Shown: positions 13,016 to 59,857 of the stretch, piece after piece | Position numbering within the stretch: the stretch's first letter is position 1 | How the letters are laid out: each line of letters opens with the position of its first letter | Assembly (NCBI RefSeq): GCF_055900595.2 | Contig: NZ_CM148325.1 | Direction: 5' to 3' (one strand) | DNA length: 64,000 nt | Notes under the pieces: model-generated | The model's database searches: none | Told to the model about the DNA's origin: nothing | Seen by the model: only the letters and a program-made list of their open reading frames with translations | Position numbers and translations under genes: made by a program

Positions 13016-14533
13016 ATGGAAAGAATAATGCAAAACAGAAAATGGATTTTGACCTCGCTGATAATGACTTTTTTCGGCATCCCCATACTGACGCAATTTT
13101 TGGCAGCGGTTATTGCCATGCTGGGGGCCGGGCTTGCCGCTATTCTTGAGGTTTGCAATTTTCTCTTTACGCCAACAATTTATCTTCTACTCAACGTCTT
13201 TATGCTGACGCTGGGGGCGATAATTCTATTTTTCTCTGGTCGCGTGTGGGCCGGTGATAGCGCACCAGAAAACAGAGAAATAGCCGTCTGGCGGCAATGC
13301 TTTTTTCTTTTACCTGCACTGTTAACTCTGGTTGGCTGGATAATCACGCTACATCTGGCAGATTATCAATTTCGCCAAATGGGAGCAGGTTGGTTGGCAG
13401 AGCTTATGCTCCCCTGGCTGGGAGTTTTGTTAGTCTCATTAGTCGGAGGTGAGTTCTGGTGGATAGTCATTATACCCGTTGGTGCGCATATTAGTTTTTC
13501 GCTGGGGTATGGCTGGCCGACCAGATATCCTTTAACCGGCACGTACGGGTTACGTTGCCGTAATTCCCTCCTGTTTATCCTTCTTATGCTTGGTTTTATC
13601 GCTGGTTATCAGGCTTATTTATATAAACAGCTTAATCCCGGCGTCGGTGTGCGTGAAAATATTGATACCTGGGCCTGGCGACCCGATAAACTCAATAATC
13701 AACTGACGCCACTGCGTGGTAAACCGCAAATTCAGTTTACACAAAACTGGCTGCGACTCGATGGTGCTACGGCGGCGTACCCAATTTATGCTTCTGCCTT
13801 TTATGCGTTGAGCGTTATACCGGAAGATTTCCACACCTGGGAATATCTGGAGAACTCTCGTACCCCCGATGCATATAACAGGATTGTTAAAGGTGATGCC
13901 GATATTATTTTTGTGGCGCAACCTTCCGGTGGGCAGAAAAAACGCGCAGAGGAATCGGGCGTCACTTTGAACTACACTCCTTTCGCCCGTGAAGCATTCG
14001 TTTTCATCGTCAATGCGGATAACCCGGTTAATTCCCTGACTGACCAACAGGTGCGTGACATCTTCAGTGGCGCAATTACCAACTGGCGTACTGTTGGCGG
14101 TAACGATCAGGAGATCCAGACCTGGCAACGCCCGGAAGACTCTGGCAGCCAGACAGTGATGCAATCGCAGGTCATGAAAAATGTCCGCATGATCTCGCCG
14201 CAGGAAACCGAAGTGGCAAGCATGATGGAGGGAATGATTAAAGTTGTTGCCGAATACCGTAATACAAACAACTCAATAGGCTACACCTTCCGCTATTACG
14301 CAACACAAATGAACGCTGACAAGAATATCAAATTAGTAGCGATTAACGGTATTGCACCGACTGCGGAAAATATTCGTAACGGCAAATATCCGTATATCGT
14401 CGATGCCTTTATGGTAACGCGGGAAAATACTACGTCAGAAACACAAAAACTGGTCGAATGGTTTTTAACGCCGCAGGGGCAGAGTCTGGTGGAAGATGTG
14501 GGTTATGTACCGTTGCATACAACAATGAAATAA
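13016..14533 (+). CDS. Fusion protein: N-terminal polytopic membrane domain (~200 aa) + C-terminal PstS-like (phosphate-binding-protein-like) periplasmic domain
   Basis: 505-aa ORF; the N-terminal part has several long hydrophobic segments; the C-terminal part carries the motif QQVRDIFSGAITNWRTVGG...RPEDSGSQTVM, which I recognise as typical of PstS/PBP-like-2 binding proteins. Start could be ATG 13016 or 13028. Confidence 0.7.
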   Translation: MERIMQNRKWILTSLIMTFFGIPILTQFLAAVIAMLGAGLAAILEVCNFLFTPTIYLLLNVFMLTLGAIILFFSGRVWAGDSAPENREIAVWRQCFFLLPALLTLVGWIITLHLADYQFRQMGAGWLAELMLPWLGVLLVSLVGGEFWWIVIIPVGAHISFSLGYGWPTRYPLTGTYGLRCRNSLLFILLMLGFIAGYQAYLYKQLNPGVGVRENIDTWAWRPDKLNNQLTPLRGKPQIQFTQNWLRLDGATAAYPIYASAFYALSVIPEDFHTWEYLENSRTPDAYNRIVKGDADIIFVAQPSGGQKKRAEESGVTLNYTPFAREAFVFIVNADNPVNSLTDQQVRDIFSGAITNWRTVGGNDQEIQTWQRPEDSGSQTVMQSQVMKNVRMISPQETEVASMMEGMIKVVAEYRNTNNSIGYTFRYYATQMNADKNIKLVAINGIAPTAENIRNGKYPYIVDAFMVTRENTTSETQKLVEWFLTPQGQSLVEDVGYVPLHTTMK

Positions 14534-14558
14534 CTTTTGAGAGAACGGAATCAGCGCG

Positions 14559-15551
14559 ATGAATAAATTCATAGGCGTTTTACTGCTAGGTGCGGTTTTA
14601 CTGGCGGGATGTGTCGACCGGGAAGGGTACTATAACAGCGTCAGGGAAGAAGAGAGTCATGGACTGACGTCTCTGCGGGGGCAACCTGAATTACGTTACA
14701 ACGATGATTGGTCAAGATGGCCGAGAGTGTACGGCGCTACAGCCTTATACCCGCTGTATGCCTCCGCGTATTATGAATTAGTACCCGAGCCAAAAGATAA
14801 GGATCGAACCTCGCTGGCCTGGCAGGCGTATGGTTTGCAACAAACCCGAACAGCTGAAGCCTACGATAGTCTGATCAAGGGTACCGCGACGGTTATTTTT
14901 GTTGCACAACCGTCGGAAGGACAGAAAAAACGTGCAGAAGAAGCAGGCGTTAAACTGAAATATACCGCGTTTGCCCGCGAAGCCTTTGTCTTTATCGTTG
15001 ATATCAAAAACCCGGTTAATTCACTTAGCGAACAGCAGGTCAAAGACATTTTTAGCGGTAAAGTGAGTCGCTGGAATAAAGTGGGCGGCGGTGACGAAAG
15101 TATAAAAGTCTGGCAGCGGCCAGAAGATTCTGGAAGCCAAACGGTTATGAAGGGACTGGTTATGCAAGATACTCCAATGCTGCCAGCCAAAAAATCCACT
15201 GTTATCGATCTTATGGGCGGTTTAATTACCGAAGTCGCCGACTACAAAAATACACCATCTTCTATTGGATACACTTTCCACTATTACGTCACACGTATGA
15301 ATGACAATATGCTCAAAATGCGCAAACAGATCAAACTGCTGGCTATAAATGGCGTTGCACCTACAGAGGAAAATATCCGTAACGGCACTTATCCGTACAT
15401 GATTGATGCTTATATGGTGACGCACGAAACCCCTACGCTGGAAACGCAGAAATTCGTCGACTGGTTTTTAAGCCCGCAGGGACAGCAATTGGTAGAGGAT
15501 GTGGGGTATGTGCCGATTCATGACGCATCATACGAATCATCAGTGCAATAA
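14559..15551 (+). CDS. PstS-like periplasmic binding lipoprotein (paralog of the C-terminal domain of the upstream gene)
   Basis: 330-aa ORF; N-terminus MNKFIGVLLLGAVLLAGC has a signal peptide with lipobox (LAGC); aligns by eye with the upstream ORF, e.g. IFVAQPSEGQKKRAEEAGVKLKYTAFAREAFVFIV against IFVAQPSGGQKKRAEESGVTLNYTPFAREAFVFIV. Confidence 0.75.
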   Translation: MNKFIGVLLLGAVLLAGCVDREGYYNSVREEESHGLTSLRGQPELRYNDDWSRWPRVYGATALYPLYASAYYELVPEPKDKDRTSLAWQAYGLQQTRTAEAYDSLIKGTATVIFVAQPSEGQKKRAEEAGVKLKYTAFAREAFVFIVDIKNPVNSLSEQQVKDIFSGKVSRWNKVGGGDESIKVWQRPEDSGSQTVMKGLVMQDTPMLPAKKSTVIDLMGGLITEVADYKNTPSSIGYTFHYYVTRMNDNMLKMRKQIKLLAINGVAPTEENIRNGTYPYMIDAYMVTHETPTLETQKFVDWFLSPQGQQLVEDVGYVPIHDASYESSVQ

Positions 15552-16153
15552 TGATGAATAAAATCAGACTTTATATTCCTCCGTTAATTCTTGGTTTTGT
15601 TATTGTGCCGTTGTTGGTGTGGCCGACGGTGGTTGCGCTGGCTGCTTCTGTTATCACGCTGAGTTTTCTGGGAGAGATACTGTTCTCTATCCCGCTCATG
15701 ATCAGGCGTATTTCACTTCTGCAATTACAACTATGGTTATCGGCTGAATATGCGCTTTTCTGCTGTGCAATGGTGGGCGTTGGTTGGCAATTTGCTCGTA
15801 TAACTCAATCTGAATTGAAAAGCAGACTGCATTGTTGGCTGGTATTTGCACCAGTTTATTTCTGGTTGCTCCTGTGGAATATCATTTTCTATGTCGCGCC
15901 AGCGAATATTGCGTTGCTGGAGAATATGCGCAGTTTCTTTCTGACAGTTGTCTGGCTCCCACTAAATTTTTCGCCATTTTGGTCTCAACCGTGGATTGAC
16001 TTTGTCGGTCCAATAAGCGCACAGCTTGGTTTTGCGTTGGGATATTATTGCCAGTGGCGTAGCAAAAATAGAAGCCAGATACGGAAGTGGAGTGAGTGGG
16101 GAACGTGCCTGAGTTTTGTTACGTTGGGTATGATGGCGTGGGCTTTGCGGTAA
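15551..16153 (+). CDS. Small polytopic membrane protein, paralog of the N-terminal membrane domain of the fusion gene at 13016
   Basis: 200-aa hydrophobic ORF; its start overlaps the upstream stop (TAATG); segment FVGPISAQLGFALGYY resembles IPVGAHISFSLGYGW in the N-terminal domain of the 505-aa ORF. Confidence 0.6.
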   Translation: MMNKIRLYIPPLILGFVIVPLLVWPTVVALAASVITLSFLGEILFSIPLMIRRISLLQLQLWLSAEYALFCCAMVGVGWQFARITQSELKSRLHCWLVFAPVYFWLLLWNIIFYVAPANIALLENMRSFFLTVVWLPLNFSPFWSQPWIDFVGPISAQLGFALGYYCQWRSKNRSQIRKWSEWGTCLSFVTLGMMAWALR

Positions 16154-16205
16154 TTCCCTGACTCAAAAAGTAGGTCAGATTGTTGACAAAGTGCGCTTTG
16201 TTCAT

Positions 16206-16302
16206 GCCGGATGCGACATGAACGTCTTATTGGCCTACAAGACCATGCAAATTCAATATATTGCATAAGCCACGTAGGCCTGATAAGCGTAGCGCATCAG
16301 GC
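16206..16302. repeat. Pair of REP elements (BIME-like) in opposite orientation; the second forms a hairpin followed by T6
   Basis: gccggatgcgacatgaacgtcttattggcctac (16206-16238) and gtaggcctgataagcgtagcgcatcaggc (16274-16302) match the E. coli REP palindromic-unit pattern; followed by agttttttg. Confidence 0.6.
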
Positions 16303-16365
16303 AGTTTTTTGTTTATCATCAGTCTCAGGTCAGATTGAAATCTGACCTGGCCACCTTACGTTAAT

Positions 16366-17871
16366 TTACGACGCCAGCGACAACCTCTGCTGCGTATATT
16401 CCCCTAGCCACTGACTCACACGGGATTGTTGCTGCGCATTCAGCCACATGCCTTGTTTTGTGCGACGCCACAGGGCATCGTCGGCGCGGCGGACCCATTC
16501 GTGGTCGACCAGATATTTCAGCTCCGCTTCGTAGAACTCATGACCGAAATCCTCCCCGAGGTCGCTTACCGCCCCCGCGTTGCCGAGCAGCAGCTCGCTA
16601 TTGCTGCCGTAAGTGCGTGCGTAATGACGTGCCAGCGATTCAGTCAGGAACGGGTAACGGCGGCGCAGGCGGGCGGCATAATCGTCGCGATCGCCTTCAA
16701 TGGCACCACCCGGCAGCACGCTCTCTTTCGTCCACGCCGGGCCAATGCCCTGATAATACGGCGTCAGTTTTTCCAGCGCGTGCTCCGCCAGTTTGCGGTA
16801 GGTGGTCAGCTTACCGCCGAATACTGATAACAGCGGAGCTTTGCCGTTTTCATCATGGATATCAAGGGTGTAATCACGGGTAATGGCCTGCGGCGAATCG
16901 GACTCATCATCACACAGTGGACGCACGCCGGAGTAGGTCCAGACGATATCATCCCGGCTTAGCTGCTTTTTAAAGTGCGCGTTATACACTTTCAGCAGGT
17001 AATTGATTTCACTCTCTTCAATCTTCACCGCTTTCGGATCGCCTTTATACTCCACATCGGTGGTACCGATAATGGAAAACTCGTCCATCCACGGGATCAC
17101 GAACACAATACGCTTATCTTCGTTTTGCAGAATGTAGGCCTGCTTTTGGGTATGCACGCGCGGCACCACAATATGGCTGCCTTTGATCAGGCGAATGCCA
17201 TAAGGCGAAGGCAGATGCATCCCGTCGTCGAAGAACTGTTTCACCCACGGGCCGGTGGCATTCACCAGACCGCGTGCCTGCCAGCTGTATTTTTTACCGG
17301 TATCAATATCTTCTGCTTCTACAATCCACAGGCCGTTTTCGCGGCGAGCAGAAGTGGCGCGAGTCCGGGTAAGCACTTCACCGCCTTTACGCACCACCAT
17401 CTGGGCGTTGGCGAGTACCAGACGCGCATCGTCTACCCAACAGTCGGAATATTCGAATCCGCGCTTAATTTCCGGTTTTAACACTGAATTTGCGCCAAAA
17501 CGCAAACCGGTAGATCCCGGCAGGCTGGTACGCTTACCCAGATGATCGTACATAAACAGACCAATACGGATCATCCACGCCGGACGCAGATGCGGGCGAT
17601 GCGGCAGGCGAAAACGCATCGGGAAAGCGATATGGGGAGCCATTTTCAGCAACACTTCACGTTCAGCCAGCGCCTCGCTGACCAGGCGGAATTCATAGTG
17701 CTCAAGGTAGCGAAGGCCACCATGAATGAGTTTTGAACTGGCGGAAGAGGTCGCACAAGCGAGATCCTGCGCCTCCAGCATCAGCACGGATAAACCGCGT
17801 CCAGCGGCGTCTGCCGCGATACCAGCACCATTGATGCCGCCACCTATCACAATCAGATCTTTGGTTTCCAT
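16366..17871 (-). CDS. glpD: Aerobic glycerol-3-phosphate dehydrogenase
   Basis: ORF 16366..17886; the recognised N-terminus METKDLIVIGGGINGAGIA (FAD-binding GxGxxG) begins at the internal ATG, giving 501 aa. Confidence 0.96.
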   Translation of the reverse strand: METKDLIVIGGGINGAGIAADAAGRGLSVLMLEAQDLACATSSASSKLIHGGLRYLEHYEFRLVSEALAEREVLLKMAPHIAFPMRFRLPHRPHLRPAWMIRIGLFMYDHLGKRTSLPGSTGLRFGANSVLKPEIKRGFEYSDCWVDDARLVLANAQMVVRKGGEVLTRTRATSARRENGLWIVEAEDIDTGKKYSWQARGLVNATGPWVKQFFDDGMHLPSPYGIRLIKGSHIVVPRVHTQKQAYILQNEDKRIVFVIPWMDEFSIIGTTDVEYKGDPKAVKIEESEINYLLKVYNAHFKKQLSRDDIVWTYSGVRPLCDDESDSPQAITRDYTLDIHDENGKAPLLSVFGGKLTTYRKLAEHALEKLTPYYQGIGPAWTKESVLPGGAIEGDRDDYAARLRRRYPFLTESLARHYARTYGSNSELLLGNAGAVSDLGEDFGHEFYEAELKYLVDHEWVRRADDALWRRTKQGMWLNAQQQSRVSQWLGEYTQQRLSLAS

Positions 17872-17904
17872 GCTGCCCTCATTCACTTTCGTTAAAGCTC
17901 ATAA

Positions 17905-17922
17905 ATGTTCGTTATCGAACAT
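17905..17922. promoter_or_regulatory. Candidate GlpR operator in the divergent glpD / glpEGR control region (perfect palindrome ATGTTCGTTATCGAACAT)
   Basis: 18-bp perfect inverted repeat seen in sequence, ~35 bp upstream of glpD start; GlpR operators are palindromes of this type (established for the glp regulon, exact consensus recalled from memory). Confidence 0.5.
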
Positions 17923-17982
17923 ATTAGCAAAGAATCGCGCTTTAGGTAACATTGAAAAAACATTTTAGAGTGATATGTATAA

Positions 17983-18387
<405 letters not shown>

Positions 18388-18419
18388 CGCTTTATACTGT
18401 CCCCTTTTGTGTGGAATAA

Positions 18420-19262
<843 letters not shown>

Positions 19263-19278
19263 TTCCAGGGATTTATAA

Positions 19279-20037
19279 ATGAAACAAACACAACGTCACA
19301 ACGGTATTATTGAACTGGTTAAACAGCAGGGTTATGTCAGCACCGAAGAACTGGTGGAACACTTCTCCGTCAGTCCGCAGACTATTCGTCGTGACCTCAA
19401 CGAGCTGGCGGAGCAAAACCTGATCCTGCGTCACCATGGCGGCGCGGCACTGCCTTCCAGTTCGGTTAACACGCCGTGGCACGATCGTAAGGCCACCCAG
19501 ACCGAAGAAAAAGAGCGTATTGCCCGCAAAGTGGCGGAGCAAATTCCTAACGGCTCGACGCTATTTATTGATATCGGCACCACGCCGGAAGCGGTGGCGC
19601 ACGCGCTGCTTAATCACAGCAATTTGCGCATTGTGACCAACAATCTCAACGTCGCTAACACGCTGATGGTAAAAGAAGATTTTCGCATCATTCTTGCAGG
19701 TGGCGAATTACGCAGCCGCGATGGTGGGATCATTGGCGAAGCGACGCTCGATTTTATCTCCCAGTTCCGCCTTGATTTCGGGATTCTGGGGATCAGCGGC
19801 ATCGATAGCGACGGCTCGCTGCTGGAGTTCGATTACCACGAAGTTCGCACCAAACGCGCTATTATTGAGAACTCGCGCCACGTTATGCTGGTTGTCGATC
19901 ACTCGAAATTTGGCCGTAATGCGATGGTCAATATGGGCAGCATCAGCATGGTCGATGCCGTCTACACCGACGCCCCGCCACCAGCGAGCGTGATGCAGGT
20001 GCTGACAGACCATCATATTCAGCTGGAGCTGTGCTGA
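19279..20037 (+). CDS. glpR: DeoR-family glycerol-3-phosphate regulon repressor
   Basis: 252-aa ORF recognised as GlpR; N-terminal HTH plus DeoR sugar-phosphate-binding domain; 3' end overlaps the convergent rtcR by 19 bp. Confidence 0.95.
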   Translation: MKQTQRHNGIIELVKQQGYVSTEELVEHFSVSPQTIRRDLNELAEQNLILRHHGGAALPSSSVNTPWHDRKATQTEEKERIARKVAEQIPNGSTLFIDIGTTPEAVAHALLNHSNLRIVTNNLNVANTLMVKEDFRIILAGGELRSRDGGIIGEATLDFISQFRLDFGILGISGIDSDGSLLEFDYHEVRTKRAIIENSRHVMLVVDHSKFGRNAMVNMGSISMVDAVYTDAPPPASVMQVLTDHHIQLELC

Positions 20038-21617
20038 TCCTGCACGGCTTCCCACGTCAGACCAAAACGCGCCAGGTATTTGCGTAGCCGATCCGCGTCG
20101 TTGACGCTGGCTTTGCCCTGGCGCGAAACATCAAAGAGTTCACGCCCGGCAGCGGAAAGCGATTTTGCCTGACGGCAGATAGCGATAACGTGTTCCAGTT
20201 GCAGCCGATCAAAGAGGTCGATGTTTTCCGCTTCAGCGCCCAGTAGCTGCTTAAGCGCAGAAGAGCGGCTATCCTGCCAGTTGTAGCGTAGACGGTTTAT
20301 CTCATCTTCTACGGTTTCAAGGGTGATACGCCCACTATCGGCAAACGTCGCCATGCGTGTGACGCTGGCAGAAAGCTCGCGAAAGTTACCGCGCCATGTT
20401 GCCTGGGGAGATGTCGCAAAGGCCAGCCAGGCGCGCCTCGCTTCGGTGTTAAAACGTACGCTGTCGCCGGTGAGTGAGGCGTGGCGCTCCACTTCATAAT
20501 CCAGGTTCGGTTCAATATCTTCCTGGCGCTGGCGTAGACCCGGCAGGGTGAAGGTCCAGAGATTGATCCGCGCGTACAGGTCTTCGCGAAATTTGCCTTC
20601 GGCAACCAGCTGACGCAAATCGCGCACCGTTCCGGCGATCAGCTGAAAATCACTGCTCACCTGGCGATCGCTACCAAACGGGTAAAAGGTTTTCTCTTCA
20701 ATGGCTTTCAGCAACATCGCCTGTTCGTCTGCGCCCAGTTCGCCAATCTCATCAAGAAACAACATGCCACCGTTGGCGCTGCGTAATAATCCTTCACGAG
20801 ATTCCCGCGCCCCGGTGAACGCGCCTTTCACATGACCAAACAGCGCGGACATGGCGGTATCGCCACGCAGAGTGGCGCAGTTCACTTCCACAAACTCGCC
20901 GCTAAACTGATGCCTCGCCTGTTTTAACTCGAAGATGCGTCGTGCCAGAAACGACTTTCCCGCACCAGTTGGGCCGTTGAGCAGGATCGGCGCGCGGGAT
21001 CTAATCGCCACTTTTTCGATCTGCTCAATCATGCGGTTGAAATGGGAGTTACGCGTGGCAATGCCGGATTTGAGGAAATCGAGGGTTTGCTGGCGTTCTT
21101 CGGCAAAGCGGCTGGCAATAGCGTTATAACGGCTTAAATCGAGATCGATAATCGTCACCGCACCAGGGCTGTTGGGCTGTTCTTTTTTACGCGGTGGCGA
21201 AGATTGTATTAACCTGGCGGGCAGGTAACGCGCTTCCGCCAGCAGAAACCAGCAAATCTGCGCGACGTGGGTACCGGTGGTGATGTGAATTAAATAGTCT
21301 TCTTTATCAGGTTCGAACGCGTAACCACGGGCGAAATCATGCAGGCAGGCGTAAACCTCCTCGAAATCCCACGGGTTATGCAGTTCAATCTCAACGCTCA
21401 CCACTTCTGTTTCTGGCGAAACATTGGCGATATCGCGTTTAAGCGTTTCAAACAGCGAGCGTGAGCGGGCGTCGTGCAACAATTCCAGTCGATTGATGAC
21501 TAACGATTCTTGCTGGCATAGACAGAGTGACGGACGCCATTTCGACCATCGCTGACTGCCGCGCCCGGCATAATCCAGTACGGTGCCGACAAAGCCAAAA
21601 GCCACTGTTTTACGCAT
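20019..21617 (-). CDS. rtcR: Sigma-54-dependent transcriptional activator of rtcBA
   Basis: 532-aa ORF recognised as RtcR; central AAA+ sigma54-interaction domain (GPTGAGKS Walker A, GAFTGA motif) and C-terminal HTH. Confidence 0.95.
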   Translation of the reverse strand: MRKTVAFGFVGTVLDYAGRGSQRWSKWRPSLCLCQQESLVINRLELLHDARSRSLFETLKRDIANVSPETEVVSVEIELHNPWDFEEVYACLHDFARGYAFEPDKEDYLIHITTGTHVAQICWFLLAEARYLPARLIQSSPPRKKEQPNSPGAVTIIDLDLSRYNAIASRFAEERQQTLDFLKSGIATRNSHFNRMIEQIEKVAIRSRAPILLNGPTGAGKSFLARRIFELKQARHQFSGEFVEVNCATLRGDTAMSALFGHVKGAFTGARESREGLLRSANGGMLFLDEIGELGADEQAMLLKAIEEKTFYPFGSDRQVSSDFQLIAGTVRDLRQLVAEGKFREDLYARINLWTFTLPGLRQRQEDIEPNLDYEVERHASLTGDSVRFNTEARRAWLAFATSPQATWRGNFRELSASVTRMATFADSGRITLETVEDEINRLRYNWQDSRSSALKQLLGAEAENIDLFDRLQLEHVIAICRQAKSLSAAGRELFDVSRQGKASVNDADRLRKYLARFGLTWEAVQDQHSSS

Positions 21618-21750
21618 CTTAGATATCCTTATAAAAGACGATATTTCATTATCGGCGAATTGGCTTTGCGGGAAATCTCCGCTTACGGACGTAAAGATTT
21701 AATCTATTAAAAACAATGAATTAAAAAATTAAGCTGCTTATTTAATTTTC

Positions 21751-21766
21751 TGGCACGACGGTTGCA
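21751..21766 (+). promoter_or_regulatory. Sigma-54 (-24/-12) promoter of rtcBA: TGGCAC-N5-TTGCA
   Basis: Exact match to the RpoN consensus GG-N10-GC (TGGCACgacggTTGCA) seen ~40 bp upstream of the rtcB ATG; consistent with the known RtcR/sigma54 control of rtcBA. Confidence 0.8.
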
Positions 21767-21804
21767 ATTATCTGGACAGCAAACAACGAAAAGAGAAAAA
21801 CAAA

Positions 21805-23031
21805 ATGAATTACGAATTACTGACCACTGAAAATGCCCCGGTAAAAATGTGGACCAAAGGCGTGCCGGTAGAGGCCGATGCGCGTCAGCAACTTATTAAT
21901 ACGGCGAAGATGCCGTTTATTTTCAAACATATTGCGGTAATGCCGGATGTACACCTGGGTAAAGGTTCCACCATTGGTAGCGTGATCCCAACCAAAGGAG
22001 CGATTATTCCGGCGGCGGTGGGGGTAGATATCGGTTGTGGAATGAACGCACTGCGAACTGCGTTAACGGCGGCTGACCTGCCTGAAAACCTGGCGGAGCT
22101 GCGTCAGGCGATTGAAACTGCCGTGCCGCACGGACGTTCCAATAATCGTAGCCGTCGTGATAAAGGCGCATGGGAGCATCCGCCTGTTAACGTCGATGCG
22201 AAATGGGCTGAGCTTGAAGCCGGTTATCAGTGGTTAACGCAAAAATATCCGCGTTTCCTTAACACTAATAACTATAAATATCTGGGAACGCTGGGAACGG
22301 GTAACCACTTTATTGAAATCTGCCTTGATGAGTCGGACCAGGTGTGGATTATGCTGCACTCCGGTTCACGCGGAATTGGTAATGCCATCGGGACTTACTT
22401 TATCGATCTGGCACAAAAAGAGATGCAGGAAACGCTTGAAACGTTGCCATCGCGTGACCTGGCGTACTTTATGGAAGGTACGGAATACTTTGATGATTAC
22501 CTGAAAGCGGTGGCCTGGGCGCAGCTTTTTGCCAGCCTTAACCGCGATGCGATGATGGAAAACGTGGTAACGGCGTTGCAGAGCGTTACGCAGAAAACGG
22601 TAAGACAGCCACAAACACTGGCGATGGAAGAGATCAACTGTCACCACAACTATGTGCAAAAAGAACAGCACTTTGGCGAAGAGATCTATGTGACGCGTAA
22701 AGGCGCGGTGTCTGCGTGTGCTGGTCAATATGGAATTATTCCCGGTTCGATGGGGGCGAAAAGCTTTATTGTCCGTGGGCTGGGAAATGAAGAGTCGTTC
22801 TGTTCGTGCAGCCACGGTGCCGGGCGGGTAATGAGCCGTACTAAAGCGAAAAAACTGTTCAGCGTGGAAGATCAAATTCGTGCTACCGCGCATGTGGAAT
22901 GCCGTAAAGATGCCGAAGTGATCGACGAAATCCCGATGGCGTATAAAGATATCGACGCGGTGATGGCGGCACAAAGCGATCTGGTGGAAGTAATCTACAC
23001 CCTGCGTCAGGTGGTGTGTGTAAAAGGATAA
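21805..23031 (+). CDS. rtcB: RNA-splicing ligase RtcB (3'-phosphate/5'-OH RNA ligase)
   Basis: 408-aa ORF recognised as RtcB. Confidence 0.97.
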   Translation: MNYELLTTENAPVKMWTKGVPVEADARQQLINTAKMPFIFKHIAVMPDVHLGKGSTIGSVIPTKGAIIPAAVGVDIGCGMNALRTALTAADLPENLAELRQAIETAVPHGRSNNRSRRDKGAWEHPPVNVDAKWAELEAGYQWLTQKYPRFLNTNNYKYLGTLGTGNHFIEICLDESDQVWIMLHSGSRGIGNAIGTYFIDLAQKEMQETLETLPSRDLAYFMEGTEYFDDYLKAVAWAQLFASLNRDAMMENVVTALQSVTQKTVRQPQTLAMEEINCHHNYVQKEQHFGEEIYVTRKGAVSACAGQYGIIPGSMGAKSFIVRGLGNEESFCSCSHGAGRVMSRTKAKKLFSVEDQIRATAHVECRKDAEVIDEIPMAYKDIDAVMAAQSDLVEVIYTLRQVVCVKG

Positions 23032-24051
<1,020 letters not shown>

Positions 24052-24093
24052 TGCAGAGATGTAAGCCGGATCCGACGTATTATCCGGCTAAAC

Positions 24094-26805
<2,712 letters not shown>

Positions 26806-45685: not shown

Positions 45686-46969
45686 ATGCAACTTACCAAC
45701 GAAGAACAAGTACAGATTGCTCGTATAAAAGAAAAAATCCCACGCATTGCCGCACTGGATCCTGAATGTAAGTTATTCGGTTCTGAAGGTTGGAAATATC
45801 AATGGCCGAAGCCTGCCAGCGAGGCGGAAATAGCTTCCTGGGAGAAAAAACATAGCGTCACTTTGCCACGGGAATATCGAATTTTTCTTCGCTATATCGC
45901 TAATGGCGGTCCGGCACATGCCTACGGTCTTGAATCTTTAGGCGGTACAGATATTTATGGCGATATAACAAAAGAAAGCCCTGTACCGCTTTATATGACG
46001 CAGCAGGATGTTGATGTGTTGAATGCTGGCCGTACAGAAGATGATGAAGAATATAGTTTTTTTGACGGCGCATTGACCATTCTCACCCTGGGATGTACTT
46101 ATGATATTTGCCTGGTGGTGACGGGGCAGTATCGCGGAAGGTTAATGCTGACTGATGGTGATGAAGATTATCCGTTTGATTTTATATATGATAAAAATTT
46201 CCTCAACTGGTATGAACGCTGGCTGGACGATTTTATTGCTGGCATGAGTATGAAGGGTTTCGATAGAAGTTTGCCAGGAACGCAAATTCAACTGCGTGAG
46301 TGGTTTTTAACTGAGAAAATCCCGGATTTACGTAGATCCATTTTATTCTCGCTATGCCGTTTTCCACAGATAGAACCCGAAACATTTGCCCTTTGGGAAC
46401 ATGTTTGCCACACAGAGAATGATAAAGAATTGTGTGAAGAGGCATTCATAAGATTACGCCAAAAAAAAGTTTCTTGTGCTGCAGATATTTTTCGACTCTA
46501 TTTTACAATGCCAGATGAATTACGTGATATTGCTATTAAAGATCTCCGTTTTGCCTGTAGAGATAGTGTGGTGAATATTGAGGATTATATTCATTCACTG
46601 TTAATAATAATGCCTGAACTTGACGATGACACTCTATCCTCAGCTGTCTTTGCTATACGAGAAACAGAGTATAATAAATATGATACTTTTCTGCCGCTTC
46701 TCGAACGTATCACTGATGACCGTCAGCAAACATTATTGTGGGCGATGAGTAAGGCGCCTGATTTCAATGAAAGCCGAGGATTCATTGAGTTGGTATTACC
46801 GCTTTTTGCATCATCAAAGATGGAGAATGTAAGGAAGGCTATTTTGTTGCTCATTGAAGTTAAAGATAATCGTATTCCACCATTGGTTGATGAAGCTGCA
46901 ACTCGTTTCCCTGAACTGACCATTTTACGAGAAAACTACTATCTCAGGACGTGGGGACATAAGCCATAA
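45686..46969 (+). CDS. SMI1/KNR4 (SUKH-1)-like domain protein with C-terminal helical-repeat region; accessory gene
   Basis: 427-aa ORF (ATG 45686 with AGGAA 8 nt upstream); motif WEKKHSVTLPREYRIFLRYIANGG and downstream FFDGALTILTLG...GRLMLTDGDEDYPF match the SMI1/KNR4 signature as I recall it; GC content visibly lower than the flanking genes. Confidence 0.7.
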   Translation: MQLTNEEQVQIARIKEKIPRIAALDPECKLFGSEGWKYQWPKPASEAEIASWEKKHSVTLPREYRIFLRYIANGGPAHAYGLESLGGTDIYGDITKESPVPLYMTQQDVDVLNAGRTEDDEEYSFFDGALTILTLGCTYDICLVVTGQYRGRLMLTDGDEDYPFDFIYDKNFLNWYERWLDDFIAGMSMKGFDRSLPGTQIQLREWFLTEKIPDLRRSILFSLCRFPQIEPETFALWEHVCHTENDKELCEEAFIRLRQKKVSCAADIFRLYFTMPDELRDIAIKDLRFACRDSVVNIEDYIHSLLIIMPELDDDTLSSAVFAIRETEYNKYDTFLPLLERITDDRQQTLLWAMSKAPDFNESRGFIELVLPLFASSKMENVRKAILLLIEVKDNRIPPLVDEAATRFPELTILRENYYLRTWGHKP

Positions 46970-47006
46970 ATTAATGGTTCAGAAATGATCTAACGCGGAG
47001 AAAAAT

Positions 47007-47537
47007 ATGATCAGGGAACATATTCAGCAAGCGATAAATAATAGGTTAGCCTTTGATGGCCCATTCAATGTTGTTCCTGAACCTGCAAGCACTGCGTTTG
47101 ATAGCCGGATCCCGACATTGAAAAACGGTGTCTGGCAGAAGGCCAGCCCTATGTTGCAGGCGCGTTTTGCACATTGTGGACGTTGGTTAAGCGCTACACA
47201 TGGAAGCTGGCTAAGTATAAGTGACATGGAAACGCTTTGGCAGGAACACATAGAAGATACGTTTCTTGATGAAATCAAAATGAATGCTGTAGCTTCAAGT
47301 GATAATTGGGATAACCATGCCTTGGGACTATTTCGTTCTCATCGCCTGTCACTTTTTGCCGGTAGTGATTACAGTTATGAAATGGTTTTTCTCCTTTGGC
47401 TAGATAGTACCGTTGAGCCAGAGGTCTGGGTTTATGACTGCAATGGGGAATCACGTTATAAAGATCTTAATGATTACCTGAATGCATATATTAATGATGA
47501 CGTAAGCGCCTGTGAGTGCTCCTGGCGAGTAGAATGA
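47007..47537 (+). CDS. Small hypothetical protein, possibly SUKH-superfamily-like; accessory gene
   Basis: 176-aa ORF with GCGGAG ribosome-binding site; C-terminal segment LFAGSDYSYEMVFLLWLDSTVEPEVWVYDCNGESRYKDLNDYLNAYI resembles the C-terminal half of SUKH-type immunity domains (weak, by eye). Confidence 0.6.
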   Translation: MIREHIQQAINNRLAFDGPFNVVPEPASTAFDSRIPTLKNGVWQKASPMLQARFAHCGRWLSATHGSWLSISDMETLWQEHIEDTFLDEIKMNAVASSDNWDNHALGLFRSHRLSLFAGSDYSYEMVFLLWLDSTVEPEVWVYDCNGESRYKDLNDYLNAYINDDVSACECSWRVE

Positions 47538-48160
47538 ATAGCCCCCCTTGCCCCTTTGATCCACAAACCGCACATTACCTCGGCACAGTGCAAATCCACT
47601 ACACCCAAACCGCCTTCAACGCTGCCGTTAAGCATTATACCTGTTACATTAAAAAGCGTTTTAAAGGGTTTAAATGGGGAATCCGAACCGCTGGCTTATT
47701 GGCTATACTGCCCATGATCCCACAATGGTTGAAACCTTCTCATGACTTTAAACTCAACGCAATCAGTACGTTAATTCTTCTATTAATGTTGCCACTCCTC
47801 TTATCAATGTTCCTGTTAATCAGCAGAAGAATTAACGATTTTAAGTCAAAAACAAAGCAAGTTACTTTTACGAAACCCGTGCGTTATGCGTTTTATTTCG
47901 AGGGGATTGTTTTTTATGAATCTCATCAGCAGGGCATACTTCGCTGGGAAGATTTTTATAGCATTGAGTATGAAGAAGATTATTTGTGGCTTTTTCTGCA
48001 TTTACCGAAGAGTTGTCCCAGAGAAGCGACGAAAGCGTTTTGCGATATTTTCATTCCCACCAGTGCGATAAAAGCGCAGCCTGAACTGGATACGTTTTTT
48101 CGTGAAACACGCCACTCGCTGGATTATCTGTTTGTCCCGTTTAATTCTGACAGAAAATAA
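47534..48160 (+). CDS. Two-helix membrane protein with a C-terminal domain resembling YcxB-like / bacterial PH-like domains; accessory gene
   Basis: ORF 47516..48160; the probable ATG 47534 overlaps the upstream stop in an ATGA (translational coupling); two hydrophobic helices (LLAILPMIPQWL, ISTLILLLMLPLLLSMFLLI) are followed by a soluble ~100-aa domain. Confidence 0.55.
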   Translation: MNSPPCPFDPQTAHYLGTVQIHYTQTAFNAAVKHYTCYIKKRFKGFKWGIRTAGLLAILPMIPQWLKPSHDFKLNAISTLILLLMLPLLLSMFLLISRRINDFKSKTKQVTFTKPVRYAFYFEGIVFYESHQQGILRWEDFYSIEYEEDYLWLFLHLPKSCPREATKAFCDIFIPTSAIKAQPELDTFFRETRHSLDYLFVPFNSDRK

Positions 48161-48163
48161 CAT

Positions 48164-48192
48164 ATCCCCCGTATCTGGTGAAACGGGGGATT
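48164..48192 (-). terminator. Hairpin (tcccccgt-N-acggggga) downstream of pck, probable pck terminator
   Basis: 8-bp inverted repeat 20 nt past the pck stop with T-rich sequence 3' on the minus strand. Confidence 0.5.
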
Positions 48193-48212
48193 TCGTCGCT
48201 TAACTTATCGGA

Positions 48213-49835
48213 TTACAGTTTTGGACCAGCCGCTACCAGCGCGGCACCCGCAGGGGTGTCGGTGTATTTATCGAAGTTGTCGATAAACAGTTTCGCCAGC
48301 GTTTCAGCTTTTTCCTGCCACTGTTCCGGAGAAGCGTAGGTGTTACGCGGATCGAGGATCTTAGTGTCTACGCCCGGCAGTTCAGTCGGGATCGCTAAAT
48401 TAAACATCGGCAGAGTGAAGGTTTCTGCGTTATCCAGCGAACCGTTGAGGATAGCGTCGATAATGGCGCGGGTATCTTTAATGGAGATACGTTTGCCAGT
48501 ACCGTTCCAGCCAGTGTTAACCAGATATGCCTGCGCACCCGCCGCTTGCATACGTTTCACCAGCACTTCTGCGTACTGAGTTGGGTGCAGCGACAGGAAC
48601 GCCGCGCCGAAGCAAGCGGAGAAGGTTGGCGTCGGTTCGGTGATGCCACGTTCAGTACCGGCCAGTTTGGCGGTGAAGCCAGAGAGGAAGTGGTACTGAG
48701 TTTGATCGGCAGTCAGGCGAGAAACCGGCGGCAGCACACCAAAGGCGTCTGCGGTCAGGAAGATAACTTTAGTTGCGTGGCCCGCTTTGGAAACCGGTTT
48801 AACGATGTTATCGATGTGATAGATCGGATAAGAAACGCGGGTGTTCTCGGTTTTTGAACCATCGTCAAAATCGATAGTGCCATCTTCACGTACGGTGACG
48901 TTTTCCAGCAGCGCATCGCGACGGATAGCGTTGTAGATTTCAGGTTCCGCTTCTTTCGACAGCTTGATGGTTTTCGCGTAGCAGCCGCCTTCGAAGTTAA
49001 ACACGCCGTCGTCATCCCAGCCGTGCTCGTCATCGCCAATCAGGCGACGTTTCGGGTCGGTGGAAAGGGTGGTTTTACCGGTGCCGGAAAGGCCAAAGAA
49101 CACCGCAACATCGCCTTTCTCGCCAACGTTGGCGGAGCAGTGCATGGAGGCGATACCTTTCAGCGGCAGCAGGTAGTTCATCATTGAGAACATCCCTTTC
49201 TTCATTTCGCCGCCGTACCAGGTGCCGCCAATCAACTGCATACGTTCAGTTAAGTTAAACGCCACGAAGTTTTCAGAGTTCAGCCCCTGCTCTTTCCACT
49301 GGGGGTTAGTGCATTTTGCGCCGTTCATAACGATAAAGTCAGGTTTAAAACCAGCCAGCTCTTCATCGCTCGGGCGAATAAACATGTTTTTGACAAAATG
49401 CGCCTGCCAGGCCACTTCGGTAATGAAACGTACGGAAAGACGCGTGTCTGGGTTCGCACCACAGAAAGCGTCGACAACGAACAGACGTTTGCCGGAAAGC
49501 TGTTTGGTCACCAGGCTCTTCAGATGCTGCCAGGTTTCCGGAGAGAGAGGTTTGTTGTCGTTCTTACCTTTGCCTTTATCAGCCCACCAGAAGGTATCGC
49601 GAGTGGTATCGTCACGGACGATATACTTATCTTTTGGTGAGCGACCGGTGAATATACCGGTATCGACGGCAACGGCACCCAGATTAGTTAACACCCCGCG
49701 CTCATAACCTGTCAGGCTCGGATCGAGCTCTTCCTGATACAGCAGGTCGTAGCTTGGGTTGTAAACGATATCATGTACGTCACTGATACCATAAGCCTCG
49801 AGTTCTTGCGGGGTCAAACCATTGTTAACGCGCAT
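48213..49835 (-). CDS. pck: Phosphoenolpyruvate carboxykinase (ATP)
   Basis: ORF 48213..49904; recognised N-terminus [17 protein letters not shown] at the internal ATG (540 aa). Confidence 0.96.
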
Positions 49836-57136: not shown

Positions 57137-57282
57137 ATGCGTGAAGTTTGCCTGATGCACAATGCTTATCAGGCCTGCGCGGCTCCTGCAATATATTGAT
57201 TTTTATCGATATTTTCAGACGGATAACGTGTTCACGCCGTATCCGGTATAAATAAAGTGACACTTTGTCAGCAAACAGAAAA

Positions 57283-57298
57283 AGGCGCCGAAGCGCCT
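57283..57298. terminator. Bidirectional terminator hairpin (aggcgccg-aagcgcct) flanked by A5 / T5, between nudE and mrcA
   Basis: Perfect 6-bp GC stem with AAAAA upstream and TTTTT downstream; 7 nt after the mrcA stop on the minus strand. Confidence 0.6.
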
Positions 57299-57304
57299 TT
57301 TTAA

Positions 57305-59857
57305 TCAGAACAATTCCTGTGCCTCGCCATTATCGATAATGGTCGTTCCCACCTCGTGCACCGCCTGTTGTGTCGGCTGTGTACCTTCGATGAAATACTC
57401 TTCGCGGCTGTTGCCACCATTAGCTAACTGCCCGGTGCTGCGATCGATATTCACCGTCACAATACCCGGCGGCGGCGTCAGCGGCTGTTCCGGCACGCCT
57501 TCAAGAACGGCTTTCATATAAGCGTCCCATGCAGGCTGGGCACTCTTGGCACCGCCTTCGTAACCTGAGATCTGATCTTTAATCGCTCCGGAAGCCGTTG
57601 TATGACCGAGATTACGGCGGTGATCATCAAAGCCAATCCAAACCGAGGTCACAACGCCCGGACCGTAACCCGAGAACCACGCATCTTTCGAACTGTTAGT
57701 GGTACCCGTTTTTCCGCCGATATCATGCCGTTGTAAATCACGACCTGCTCGCCAGCCGGTACCCTGCCAGCCTGGCTCACCAAAAATATTGGTGTTCAGG
57801 GCGCTCTTAATCAGGAATGCCAGCGGAGTGTTGATGACGTGCGGTGCGTACTCCTGCGCGCCAGTCTTCGCGACTAACGCCTGATTCGCCTGCTCCAGCT
57901 GCGGCATTGGTACAGAAACATTCTGCTGCTCGCGGGAGATAGCGACATCTTCAACATCGTTATTTTCCAGCACGTTCGATTTCTGCGTATCACCGTAAAT
58001 CACCGGAATATCGCATTCCGGGCAGGCTACTTTCGGTTTCGCTTCGAAAATCACGCCGCCCTGATCGTTTTCAATTTTGCTGATAAACCACGGGTCCACC
58101 AGGAAGCCGCCGTTCGCCATTACCGCGTAGCCGCGCGCCACCTGCATTGGGGTGAAGGACGCTGAACCCAGCGCCAGCGATTCGGTGTGGACAATGTTTT
58201 GCGCCGGGAAGCCGAAGCGTTGCAGATATTCTGCAGCGTAGTCGACGCCCATCGCCCGCATTGCGCGTACCATCACCACGTTTTTCGACTGGCCCAGTCC
58301 CTGACGTAAGCGAATTGGACCGGCATACTGTGGTGGTGAGTTCTTCGGCTGCCAGTCAGAACCGGCACCTGCATCCCAGCGGGAAATTGGCACATCGTTC
58401 AACATACTTGCCAGCGTCAGACCTTTATCCATCGCCGCGGTGTAGAGGAACGGTTTGATGTTGGAACCTACCTGACGCAGTGCCTGGGTGGCGCGGTTAA
58501 ACTTGCTCTGATTGAAATCAAAGCCACCGACCAGCGCCATAACGGCACCGTTTTGCGGATTGATCGACACCAGCGCCGAGTTCACTTCCGGCACTTGTGC
58601 CAGCCACCATGTATCGCCAACCTGACGAACCCAGATTTGCTGACCCGTTTGCAGAACATCGGTCACTTTACGCGGCGTCGGTCCCTGCTGAGTATCCGAA
58701 CGGTAAGGACGCGCCCAGCGAACGCCTTCCATACTCAATGCGACGGTCGACCCGTCCGCCAGCATCGCCGTCGCTTCCTGAGGATTGGCGCTGGTGACTG
58801 CGGCAGGCAGCAGCGGACCATAGGTCGGCAGCGCCTTCAGCGTATCGGTAATCTTGTTGTTATCCCACGCCGATTCGCCCACTTTCCACAGCACATTTGC
58901 CGGGCCGCGATAGCCGTGGCGCATGTCGTAGTCCAGCACGTTATTACGTACTGCCTGCTGTGCGGCCTGCTGTACTTTGCGGGTGATGGTGGTGTAAATG
59001 CGATAACCGTCTTCATAGGCACTTTCGCCATAACGGTTATACATCTCCTGGCGCACCATTTCGCTCAGGTACGGCGCAGAGAAAGCAATCTCCGGCGCGT
59101 GATAGTTAGCGTTAATCGCCTCAGTGCGTGTCTGATCGAACTGTTGTTGGGTGATATACCCTTCATCCAGCATCCGCGACAGTACGACGTTACGCCGCGC
59201 GACGGCACGATCCATTGAGTAGAGCGGATTAAAGGTGGAAGGCGCTTTCGGCAGCCCGGCTATCACCGCCATTTCGTTCAGCGTCAGTTGGTCGACCGTT
59301 TTACCGAAATAGACTTGTGCCGCAGCACCGACACCATAGGCGCGGTAACCGAGGTAAATCTTGTTCAGATAAAGCTCGAGGATCTCGTCTTTCGTCAGCA
59401 ACTGTTCAATGCGAATCGCGAGGAAGACTTCCTTAATCTTACGCATCAGCGTGCGTTCTGGACTGAGGAAGAAGTTTCTCGCCAGCTGCTGGGTAATGGT
59501 ACTCGCCCCTTGTGACGCGTGGCCGGAGAACAGCGCCACACTTGCCGCACGGAAGATCCCCACCGGGTCAACGCCGTGATGCTCGTAGAAGCGGCTGTCT
59601 TCCGTCGCGATAAAGGCTTTCACCATCTCCGGCGGGATTTGATCCAACGTAACCGGAATACGACGTTTCTCACCGTATTGAGCAATCAGCTCGCCATCGG
59701 CGCTGTAAATCTGCATCGGAATTTGCAGGCGAACATCTTTTAATGTCGCCACATCCGGCAGTTGTGGCTCGATGTAGCGGTATAGGCCATAAATCGAGCC
59801 TGCTCCCAGCAGAATGCAACAGACTGCAAGGATCAAAAAATACTTTACGAACTTCAC
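57305..59857 (-). CDS. mrcA: Penicillin-binding protein 1A (bifunctional glycosyltransferase/transpeptidase)
   Basis: ORF 57305..59881; recognised start MKFVKYFLILAVCCILLGA at the internal ATG (850 aa). Confidence 0.96.
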   Translation of the reverse strand: MKFVKYFLILAVCCILLGAGSIYGLYRYIEPQLPDVATLKDVRLQIPMQIYSADGELIAQYGEKRRIPVTLDQIPPEMVKAFIATEDSRFYEHHGVDPVGIFRAASVALFSGHASQGASTITQQLARNFFLSPERTLMRKIKEVFLAIRIEQLLTKDEILELYLNKIYLGYRAYGVGAAAQVYFGKTVDQLTLNEMAVIAGLPKAPSTFNPLYSMDRAVARRNVVLSRMLDEGYITQQQFDQTRTEAINANYHAPEIAFSAPYLSEMVRQEMYNRYGESAYEDGYRIYTTITRKVQQAAQQAVRNNVLDYDMRHGYRGPANVLWKVGESAWDNNKITDTLKALPTYGPLLPAAVTSANPQEATAMLADGSTVALSMEGVRWARPYRSDTQQGPTPRKVTDVLQTGQQIWVRQVGDTWWLAQVPEVNSALVSINPQNGAVMALVGGFDFNQSKFNRATQALRQVGSNIKPFLYTAAMDKGLTLASMLNDVPISRWDAGAGSDWQPKNSPPQYAGPIRLRQGLGQSKNVVMVRAMRAMGVDYAAEYLQRFGFPAQNIVHTESLALGSASFTPMQVARGYAVMANGGFLVDPWFISKIENDQGGVIFEAKPKVACPECDIPVIYGDTQKSNVLENNDVEDVAISREQQNVSVPMPQLEQANQALVAKTGAQEYAPHVINTPLAFLIKSALNTNIFGEPGWQGTGWRAGRDLQRHDIGGKTGTTNSSKDAWFSGYGPGVVTSVWIGFDDHRRNLGHTTASGAIKDQISGYEGGAKSAQPAWDAYMKAVLEGVPEQPLTPPPGIVTVNIDRSTGQLANGGNSREEYFIEGTQPTQQAVHEVGTTIIDNGEAQELF

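Follow-up and report, generated by a model that had tools for sequence, protein, structure and literature searches.

glpR and rtcR share a 19-nt tail-to-tail overlap that is probably an ordinary inherited arrangement in Enterobacteriaceae

When two convergent genes share their last codons and leave no spacer between them, do the two units interfere with one another, or is the overlap simply the way in which they came to abut? The question is raised by glpR and rtcR, which meet tail to tail in the window (the whole 64-kb stretch of DNA that was analysed), and for which an earlier note had seen a potential for antisense interference between the glycerol-3-phosphate regulator and the RNA-repair regulator. 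We consider it likely that this is an ordinary inherited overlap, rtcR and glpR abutting without spacer in Enterobacteriaceae as a harmless compaction. Functional antisense interference between them is a possibility of low prior probability, and nothing in the analysis points to regulatory interference.

The junction and its two genes

The genes at and around the junction are arranged as follows.

18061..19262, + strand: glpE and glpG, upstream of glpR (ORF list, PGAP)
19279..20037, + strand: glpR coding sequence; the product is the DeoR-family repressor that controls the glycerol-3-phosphate regulon (ORF list, Pfam, PGAP of the identical sequence)
20035-20037, + strand: glpR stop TGA; product of 252 aa with C-terminus ...HHIQLELC
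20019..20037, both strands: 19-nt tail-to-tail overlap, + strand sequence TCAGCTGGAGCTGTGCTGA (direct reading)
Complement of 20019-20021, - strand: rtcR stop; product of 532 aa with C-terminus ...WEAVQDQHSSS
20019..21617, - strand: rtcR coding sequence; the product is the sigma-54 activator of rtcBA (ORF list, Pfam, PGAP)
21805..24051, + strand: rtcB-rtcA, the target of RtcR, divergent from rtcR (ORF list, PGAP)

Direct reading of the sequence and the ORF list concur on an overlap at 20019-20037, as the earlier note had it, and its naming of the two genes was right as well: GlpR carries the HTH_DeoR and DeoRC domains, RtcR the RtcR N-terminal, Sigma54_activat and AAA_lid_14 domains (Pfam), and both are full-length members of their families. 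As these domains span both proteins, the pair consists of two real coding genes, each with its stop codon inside the coding sequence of its partner and each with a product as long as its homologues (of which RtcR has hundreds at full length). The overlap codes for QLELC* of GlpR on the + strand and for (D)QHSSS* of RtcR on the - strand; the end of glpR (20010-20039, + strand) reads ...CAT CAT ATT CAG CTG GAG CTG TGC TGA, and that of rtcR (- strand) ...CAG GAT CAG CAC AGC TCC AGC TGA. At its other end, glpR is separated from the glpG stop by 16 nt. Among the nine convergent pairs in the window glpR/rtcR is the only one lacking a spacer, the other eight being separated by 42-219 nt, and several of them hold canonical terminators within their gaps, unlike the terminator-less glpR/rtcR. 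The mrcA/nudE spacer (~57262-57305) forms a bidirectional canonical terminator with A-tract, GC stem and T-tract, a textbook example that contrasts with glpR/rtcR, and canonical hairpins followed by T-tracts also stand at 48160-48213 (pckA/hypothetical) and at 1311-1368 (yhgN/gntU).

The glpR-rtcR overlap is a fixed, inherited gene arrangement, for which chance is not really at issue. Positions 19200-21700 of the window are 100% identical to the finished chromosome of 'E. coli' Z0117EC0005, where PGAP annotates the same 19-nt overlap; in typical E. coli, at 93% identity, PGAP places glpR and rtcR with an identical 19-nt overlap, and in K-12 MG1655 (rtcR at 3558268-3559866 on the + strand, glpR at 3559848-3560605 on the - strand) it is again 19 nt. 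Of 5426 complete E. coli genomes, 5421 contain a 61-nt probe of the junction at full length, and every match listed has glpR and rtcR annotated beneath the probe; the arrangement recurs in further Escherichia and in Klebsiella, Intestinirhabdus, Superficieibacter and Salmonella-type loci. Our literature search found no discussion of a glpR-rtcR overlap; as RefSeq annotation, that of K-12 MG1655 included, the overlap is already known, and it is ordinary rather than a new regulatory device.

The lineage to which the window belongs is a divergent Escherichia, at ~93% identity to typical E. coli, with 8 of 5425 genomes reaching 99%. Mismatches to typical E. coli are evenly spread over 16200-24700, and probably over the whole window, with no recombination block. 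Strain Z0117EC0005, identical to the window over 16200-24700 (100%), came from a dog in South Korea, and by RtcR the nearest species representative is E. whittamii (96%). Gene content between glpD and glgP (13025-16153) comprises a hypothetical gene and two genes for PstS-family phosphate-binding proteins; in K-12, glpD is adjoined there by the small putative gene yzgL. Between pckA and envZ (45686-48160) lie two hypothetical genes and a gene of the SMI1/KNR4 family, members of which are often the immunity proteins of polymorphic toxin systems; these pckA-envZ genes are presumably not found in K-12.

Natural deletions at the rtc locus provided a further view of how the two genes are tied together. 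Most of the 2.5-kb glpR-rtcR query is missing from ~10% of E. coli genomes, and three such strains were looked at (NCTC11023, AH19F006 and SCPM-O-B-8794). In NCTC11023 the deletion runs from the 3' part of glpR to the 5' part of malP. In AH19F006 it runs from the 5' part of rtcR through the 5' part of rtcA, leaving glpR intact together with a 399-nt remnant of the rtcR 3' part, and in SCPM-O-B-8794 rtc is deleted, glpR is intact and ~100 nt of the rtcR 3' end are left. Such a remnant is expected wherever rtc is deleted and glpR is intact (two such loci were inspected), since glpR codons make up the final 19 nt of rtcR; that rtc can be deleted with glpR intact, seen in one of the strains inspected, indicates that glpR does not depend on its partner. 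It follows for practical work that an engineered rtcR deletion that takes the last 19 nt also truncates glpR.

Overlap lengths and RtcR tails among relatives

In a scan of RtcR with one genome per species (21 loci), glpR was convergent to rtcR in E. whittamii, E. albertii, two further Escherichia species, Klebsiella oxytoca, Intestinirhabdus alba and Superficieibacter electus, and was not convergent to it at the loci of Iodobacter, Accumulibacter, Pseudomonas, the Desulfo- lineages and others among the 21. In Enterobacteriaceae the genes overlap wherever they were found adjacent, by 4, 19, 35 or 38 nt.

Escherichia spp. (E. whittamii, E. albertii and two others) and K. oxytoca: overlap of 19 nt
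Intestinirhabdus alba: overlap of 35 nt
Superficieibacter electus: overlap of 4 nt (CTAA)
Salmonella-type locus with rsr (Ro60) upstream of rtcR (P0027, 527 aa): overlap of 4 nt (TTAA)
Second lineage, NCBI name Salmonella enterica (P0030, 536 aa): overlap of 38 nt, after a 7-nt deletion

The label Salmonella-type for the P0027 locus is our own, a presumption drawn from the rsr-rtcBA operon. At that locus (L027, 258-1811) the Ro60/TROVE gene rsr adjoins rtcR on its upstream side, in the place taken by rtcB in Escherichia; the content of the rtc operon differs between genera, and the glpR-rtcR junction is retained.

The two protein ends behave very differently across these loci. GlpR is 252 aa long and ends in QLELC* in all overlapping loci, where those codons vary synonymously only, at an overall GlpR identity in the other genera of 89-99%. 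RtcR, on the other hand, continues after its conserved ...FGL(T/S)W(E/D)xx with DQHSSS, NQHSSS, HQHSSS, N, EMAN, EITA, ISTAPAEYGDR or ISTIPAVYGGRR, and RtcR homologues outside Enterobacteriaceae and in other phyla, which have no neighbouring glpR, carry 3-10 variable and unrelated residues past W-x-x-(V/I/L). With a constant GlpR end and a variable RtcR tail, the GlpR end is the constrained partner and the RtcR tail the passenger. The tail would then be dispensable, running opposite glpR until it meets the first antisense stop. What is kept among relatives is the adjacency of the genes, not the overlap itself, whose length varies from 4 to 38 nt with unrelated RtcR tails; that the length is unconserved argues for a by-product of the missing spacer as opposed to a selected regulatory feature.

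The different lengths can be traced to individual bases. In the rtcR sense the junction reads CAG GAT CAG CAC AGC TCC AGY TGA in Escherichia and CAG AAT TAA CAC AGC TCC AGT TGA at the Salmonella-type locus, and the complement of the glpR stop takes in the third base of the rtcR GAT/AAT codon plus bases one and two of the codon after it. A glpR stop TGA, as in Escherichia, therefore gives CAG/CAR (Gln) in the rtcR frame, which goes on for five more codons to TGA (19 nt), and a glpR stop TAA or TAG merges the two stops into TTAA or CTAA (4 nt). A single substitution in the glpR stop (TAA/TGA) is thus enough to switch between the 4-nt and the 19-nt form, with no need for an indel; in the 35- and 38-nt forms the frame was changed by a 7-nt deletion.

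The reading phase of the overlap is 123:213, codon positions 1, 2 and 3 of glpR opposing positions 2, 1 and 3 of rtcR, such that the third positions of both frames coincide (20022, 20025, 20028, 20031 and 20034). Ten sequences compared over the 19 nt showed three substitutions (in the rtcR sense, C/T at 16, C/T at 10 and C/A at 13), all of them at shared wobble sites and synonymous for glpR and rtcR alike. Since nearly all changes that are synonymous for glpR are also synonymous for rtcR in this phase, they do not independently show that the RtcR tail is under selection, and the shared wobble makes the overlap nearly free of evolutionary cost.

In these respects the pair resembles the convergent overlapping genes surveyed by Lillo and Krakauer (2007; PMC2174442), a well-described class of genuine genes that run on opposite strands and have their 3' ends in common. 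Phase 123:213 is that of the common 4-nt double stops, TTAA/CTAA among them, and accounts for 47% of all convergent overlaps and for 18% of those of at least 5 nt (PMC2174442). The same authors proposed stop-codon mutation as the origin of convergent overlaps, a model that the origin of the glpR-rtcR overlap fits and that its length variation matches. They counted 58 convergent overlaps in E. coli, with predicted intrinsic terminators for 20% of the genes involved, and neither glpR nor rtcR has one, like the other 80%. At 19 nt, glpR-rtcR exceeds the modal 4 nt, and nothing essential differs. The overlap has little significance in itself and serves as a worked example, in which one base of the glpR stop sets both the length of the neighbouring protein and that of the overlap, and in which the GlpR tail, as the constrained partner, determines the passenger tail of RtcR.

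Transcripts at the junction

The interleaved stops leave no intergenic room for a terminator, as the earlier note had argued, and we found no credible intrinsic terminator near the junction on either strand. A consensus scan of 18900-21900 returned three weak sites against 4.3 expected, none of them at the junction, and two custom scans for hairpins with T-tracts turned up no credible candidate in the 1 kb that follows each stop; one weak, loose hairpin stands 47 nt ahead of the rtcR stop, where termination would truncate the mRNA. A sigma-70 promoter scan of 18900-21900 gave no sites, and there is thus no obvious independent antisense promoter; no RNA family was found by Rfam at gathering thresholds in the whole 64-kb window. 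Composition was likewise searched for Rho utilization: in the 500 nt that follow the glpR stop the C/G ratio in 78-nt windows is 0.7-1.25, past the rtcR stop it is 0.74-1.67, and this C/G skew, an uninformative search, revealed no clear C-rich, G-poor rut-like tract downstream of either stop. The one structure at the junction is the following.

20025..20051, + strand: stem-loop of 10 bp whose loop holds the glpR stop and which lacks a U-tract (folding, shuffles)

Its folding energy of -16.4 kcal/mol was equalled by 14 of 200 shuffles (z = -1.72; z = -0.52 for the - strand), and it is missing from E. whittamii, two Escherichia species, K. oxytoca, Intestinirhabdus and Superficieibacter. We therefore rejected it as a functional element, being neither significant against shuffles nor conserved, and consider it probably incidental.

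Published K-12 data bear on the fate of the transcripts. Supplementary file 2 of Adams et al. (2021; PMC7815308) lists a Rho region of the class 'antisense rtcR', peaking at 3559514 on the - strand, with a Rho score of 8.9 (p = 2.7e-27) and with coverage upstream/downstream of 154/29 without and 153/256 with bicyclomycin. Rho accordingly lowers glpR-strand RNA running into rtcR antisense about five-fold in K-12. The peak falls 334 nt past the glpR stop (whose end is at 3559848 in K-12), or at ~20371 of the window, a coarse position as the score was computed over 800-nt windows. The Term-seq tables of the same study assign no 3' end to glpR, glpG or rtcR and, across 3559500-3560699, list nothing except the Rho region. 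Huang et al. (2020; PMC7373196) captured double-stranded RNA with p19 and report in Table S3 one 22-bp RNase III-type dsRNA inside K-12 glpR (U00096.2 3558313-3558337; 93 and 125 reads, about 1 RPM), near the threshold in that its counts are close to the lower end among the thousands of entries; the table has no entry for rtcR, rtcBA or the overlap. Two further features can be projected onto the window from these data.

20038..20371, + strand: presumed untranslated glpEGR read-through, antisense to the 3' part of rtcR (K-12 Rho peak projected, assuming no indels)
19570..19593: site of the K-12 glpR dsRNA (exact 22-mer match at 19570-19591)

The dsRNA implies some antisense RNA on the rtcR strand ~425 nt past the rtcR stop, and its source could be an unrelated antisense promoter. 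The published K-12 data suggest that the transcripts may overlap in vivo, through glpR-strand RNA reaching ~334 nt into rtcR antisense and through one trace dsRNA in glpR. The expectation of the earlier note that each transcript reads into the other gene is borne out for at least one side, where the read-through is real. The K-12 tables that we searched show low read coverage there and no strong transcript signal for either gene.

One difference between strains matters when K-12 transcript data are carried over to others. In the MG1655 reference, glpR (L024, 4349-5106) is a pseudogene, in which the loss of 1 nt at gene position 151 brings a premature stop near codon 106, as opposed to the intact glpR of the window; the frameshift leaves the distal two-thirds untranslated, so that Rho could load earlier than in the intact gene. 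We take it that MG1655 stocks differ at the deletion site. The greater read-through under Rho inhibition is a K-12 result, and that reference carries the frameshift.

Rho acts on untranslated RNA, and in the course of events that we propose there would be no termination between the genes: the ribosome would leave at the glpR stop while RNA polymerase went on into rtcR antisense, and the untranslated glpR-strand RNA would be ended by Rho a few hundred nucleotides into rtcR, as the K-12 data show. In mirror image, the rtcR transcript probably ends inside glpR antisense. From K-12 we infer the same Rho-ended read-through for the lineage of the window. The likeness to Rho-dependent termination of untranslated RNA (PMC7815308) lies in the bicyclomycin-sensitive 'antisense rtcR' region on the glpR strand, and is qualified by the origin of these data in MG1655 with its frameshifted glpR and by the composition of the window, which shows no clear rut-like tract. 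As a worked example, the pair illustrates dependence on Rho within the neighbouring gene instead of on an intergenic terminator.

Regulatory coupling, programmed termination and artefact as alternatives

One alternative reading is an excludon-like coupling, in which the 3' overlap was selected so that transcription of glpEGR lowers expression of rtcR, or the reverse, by polymerase collision or by RNase III cleavage of an mRNA duplex, tying glycerol metabolism to RNA repair. Excludons, in which the 3' UTRs of convergent operons overlap, have been described (reviews PMC7154746 and PMC12288877); the transcripts of glpR and rtcR appear to overlap, as judged from the Rho-sensitive region and the trace of RNase III-type dsRNA, and the adjacency has been kept across several genera. 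Overlapping transcripts of opposite-strand neighbours are, however, the weakest criterion for an excludon, and the only likeness that glpR-rtcR may have to one: it gives no sign of mutually exclusive expression, its dsRNA is minimal (near the bottom of the read counts in glpR and without an entry at the overlap or in rtcR), and neither its length nor the RtcR tail is conserved. Moreover, dsRNA density is on average 37.9-fold lower where convergent operons overlap at their 3' ends than at 5' overlaps (PMC7373196), RtcR activity is described in PMC7790460 as governed by a CARF-like domain and not by mRNA level, and the ~10% of E. coli genomes without most of the query, together with the inspected strain that has lost rtc and kept glpR, do not favour an obligatory link. 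We regard such coupling as unlikely. A form of it in which absence of the spacer has been kept since constitutive glpEGR read-through into rtcR antisense, and the reverse, caps the levels of RtcR or GlpR appears distinctly unlikely to us; if true, it would link glycerol-3-phosphate regulation with the RNA-repair response. With coverage at the K-12 locus as low as it is, collisions or duplexes should be rare, and the low read counts and single trace dsRNA suggest that mutual interference is probably negligible.

The stem-loop at 20025-20051 could instead be read as a device for programmed bidirectional termination, positioning head-on collisions such that both transcripts end within the overlap. 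A 10-bp stem-loop is indeed present on the glpR strand, glpR-rtcR shares with the bidirectional intrinsic terminators and collision-driven termination of Wang et al. (bioRxiv 10.1101/2022.10.23.513370) the convergent pair and possibly a stem-loop at the boundary, and in that work a stem-loop in the nascent RNA was needed for defined collision positions between convergent genes. As opposed to those terminators, the junction lacks a stable, GC-rich hairpin between an A-tract and a U-tract, the hairpin that it does have folds no better than shuffles on either strand and has been lost in the relatives listed above, and the K-12 Term-seq tables list no 3' end at the junction (PMC7815308); low coverage at the locus would also make collisions unlikely. 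This reading seems very improbable. There is next to no chance that the overlap is an artefact of annotation or sequencing, in which one gene really stops earlier. The earlier note had named a shorter true stop as what would undo its reading, and such a stop is excluded because both stops are the first in frame; protein lengths are as in the homologues, and the junction is the same in thousands of finished genomes. We found no support for an artefact, beyond rare RtcR entries of 636 aa (P0003, P0008), which show that indels near the junction occur. An ordinary inherited overlap, compact and harmless, is accordingly the explanation that we prefer.

The 636-aa entries were considered in their own right as a natural stop-loss allele, which was rejected for the one inspected (L031): a T4-to-T5 homopolymer insertion upstream of the overlap, ~47 nt before the rtcR stop, shifts the frame, which continues into a shadow ORF, and the gene caller then leaves out glpR entirely. 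The frame that the 636-aa entries (P0003, P0008) traverse is a 115-codon open frame antisense to glpR (19708-20055, - strand) in phase 123:321, a typical shadow ORF.
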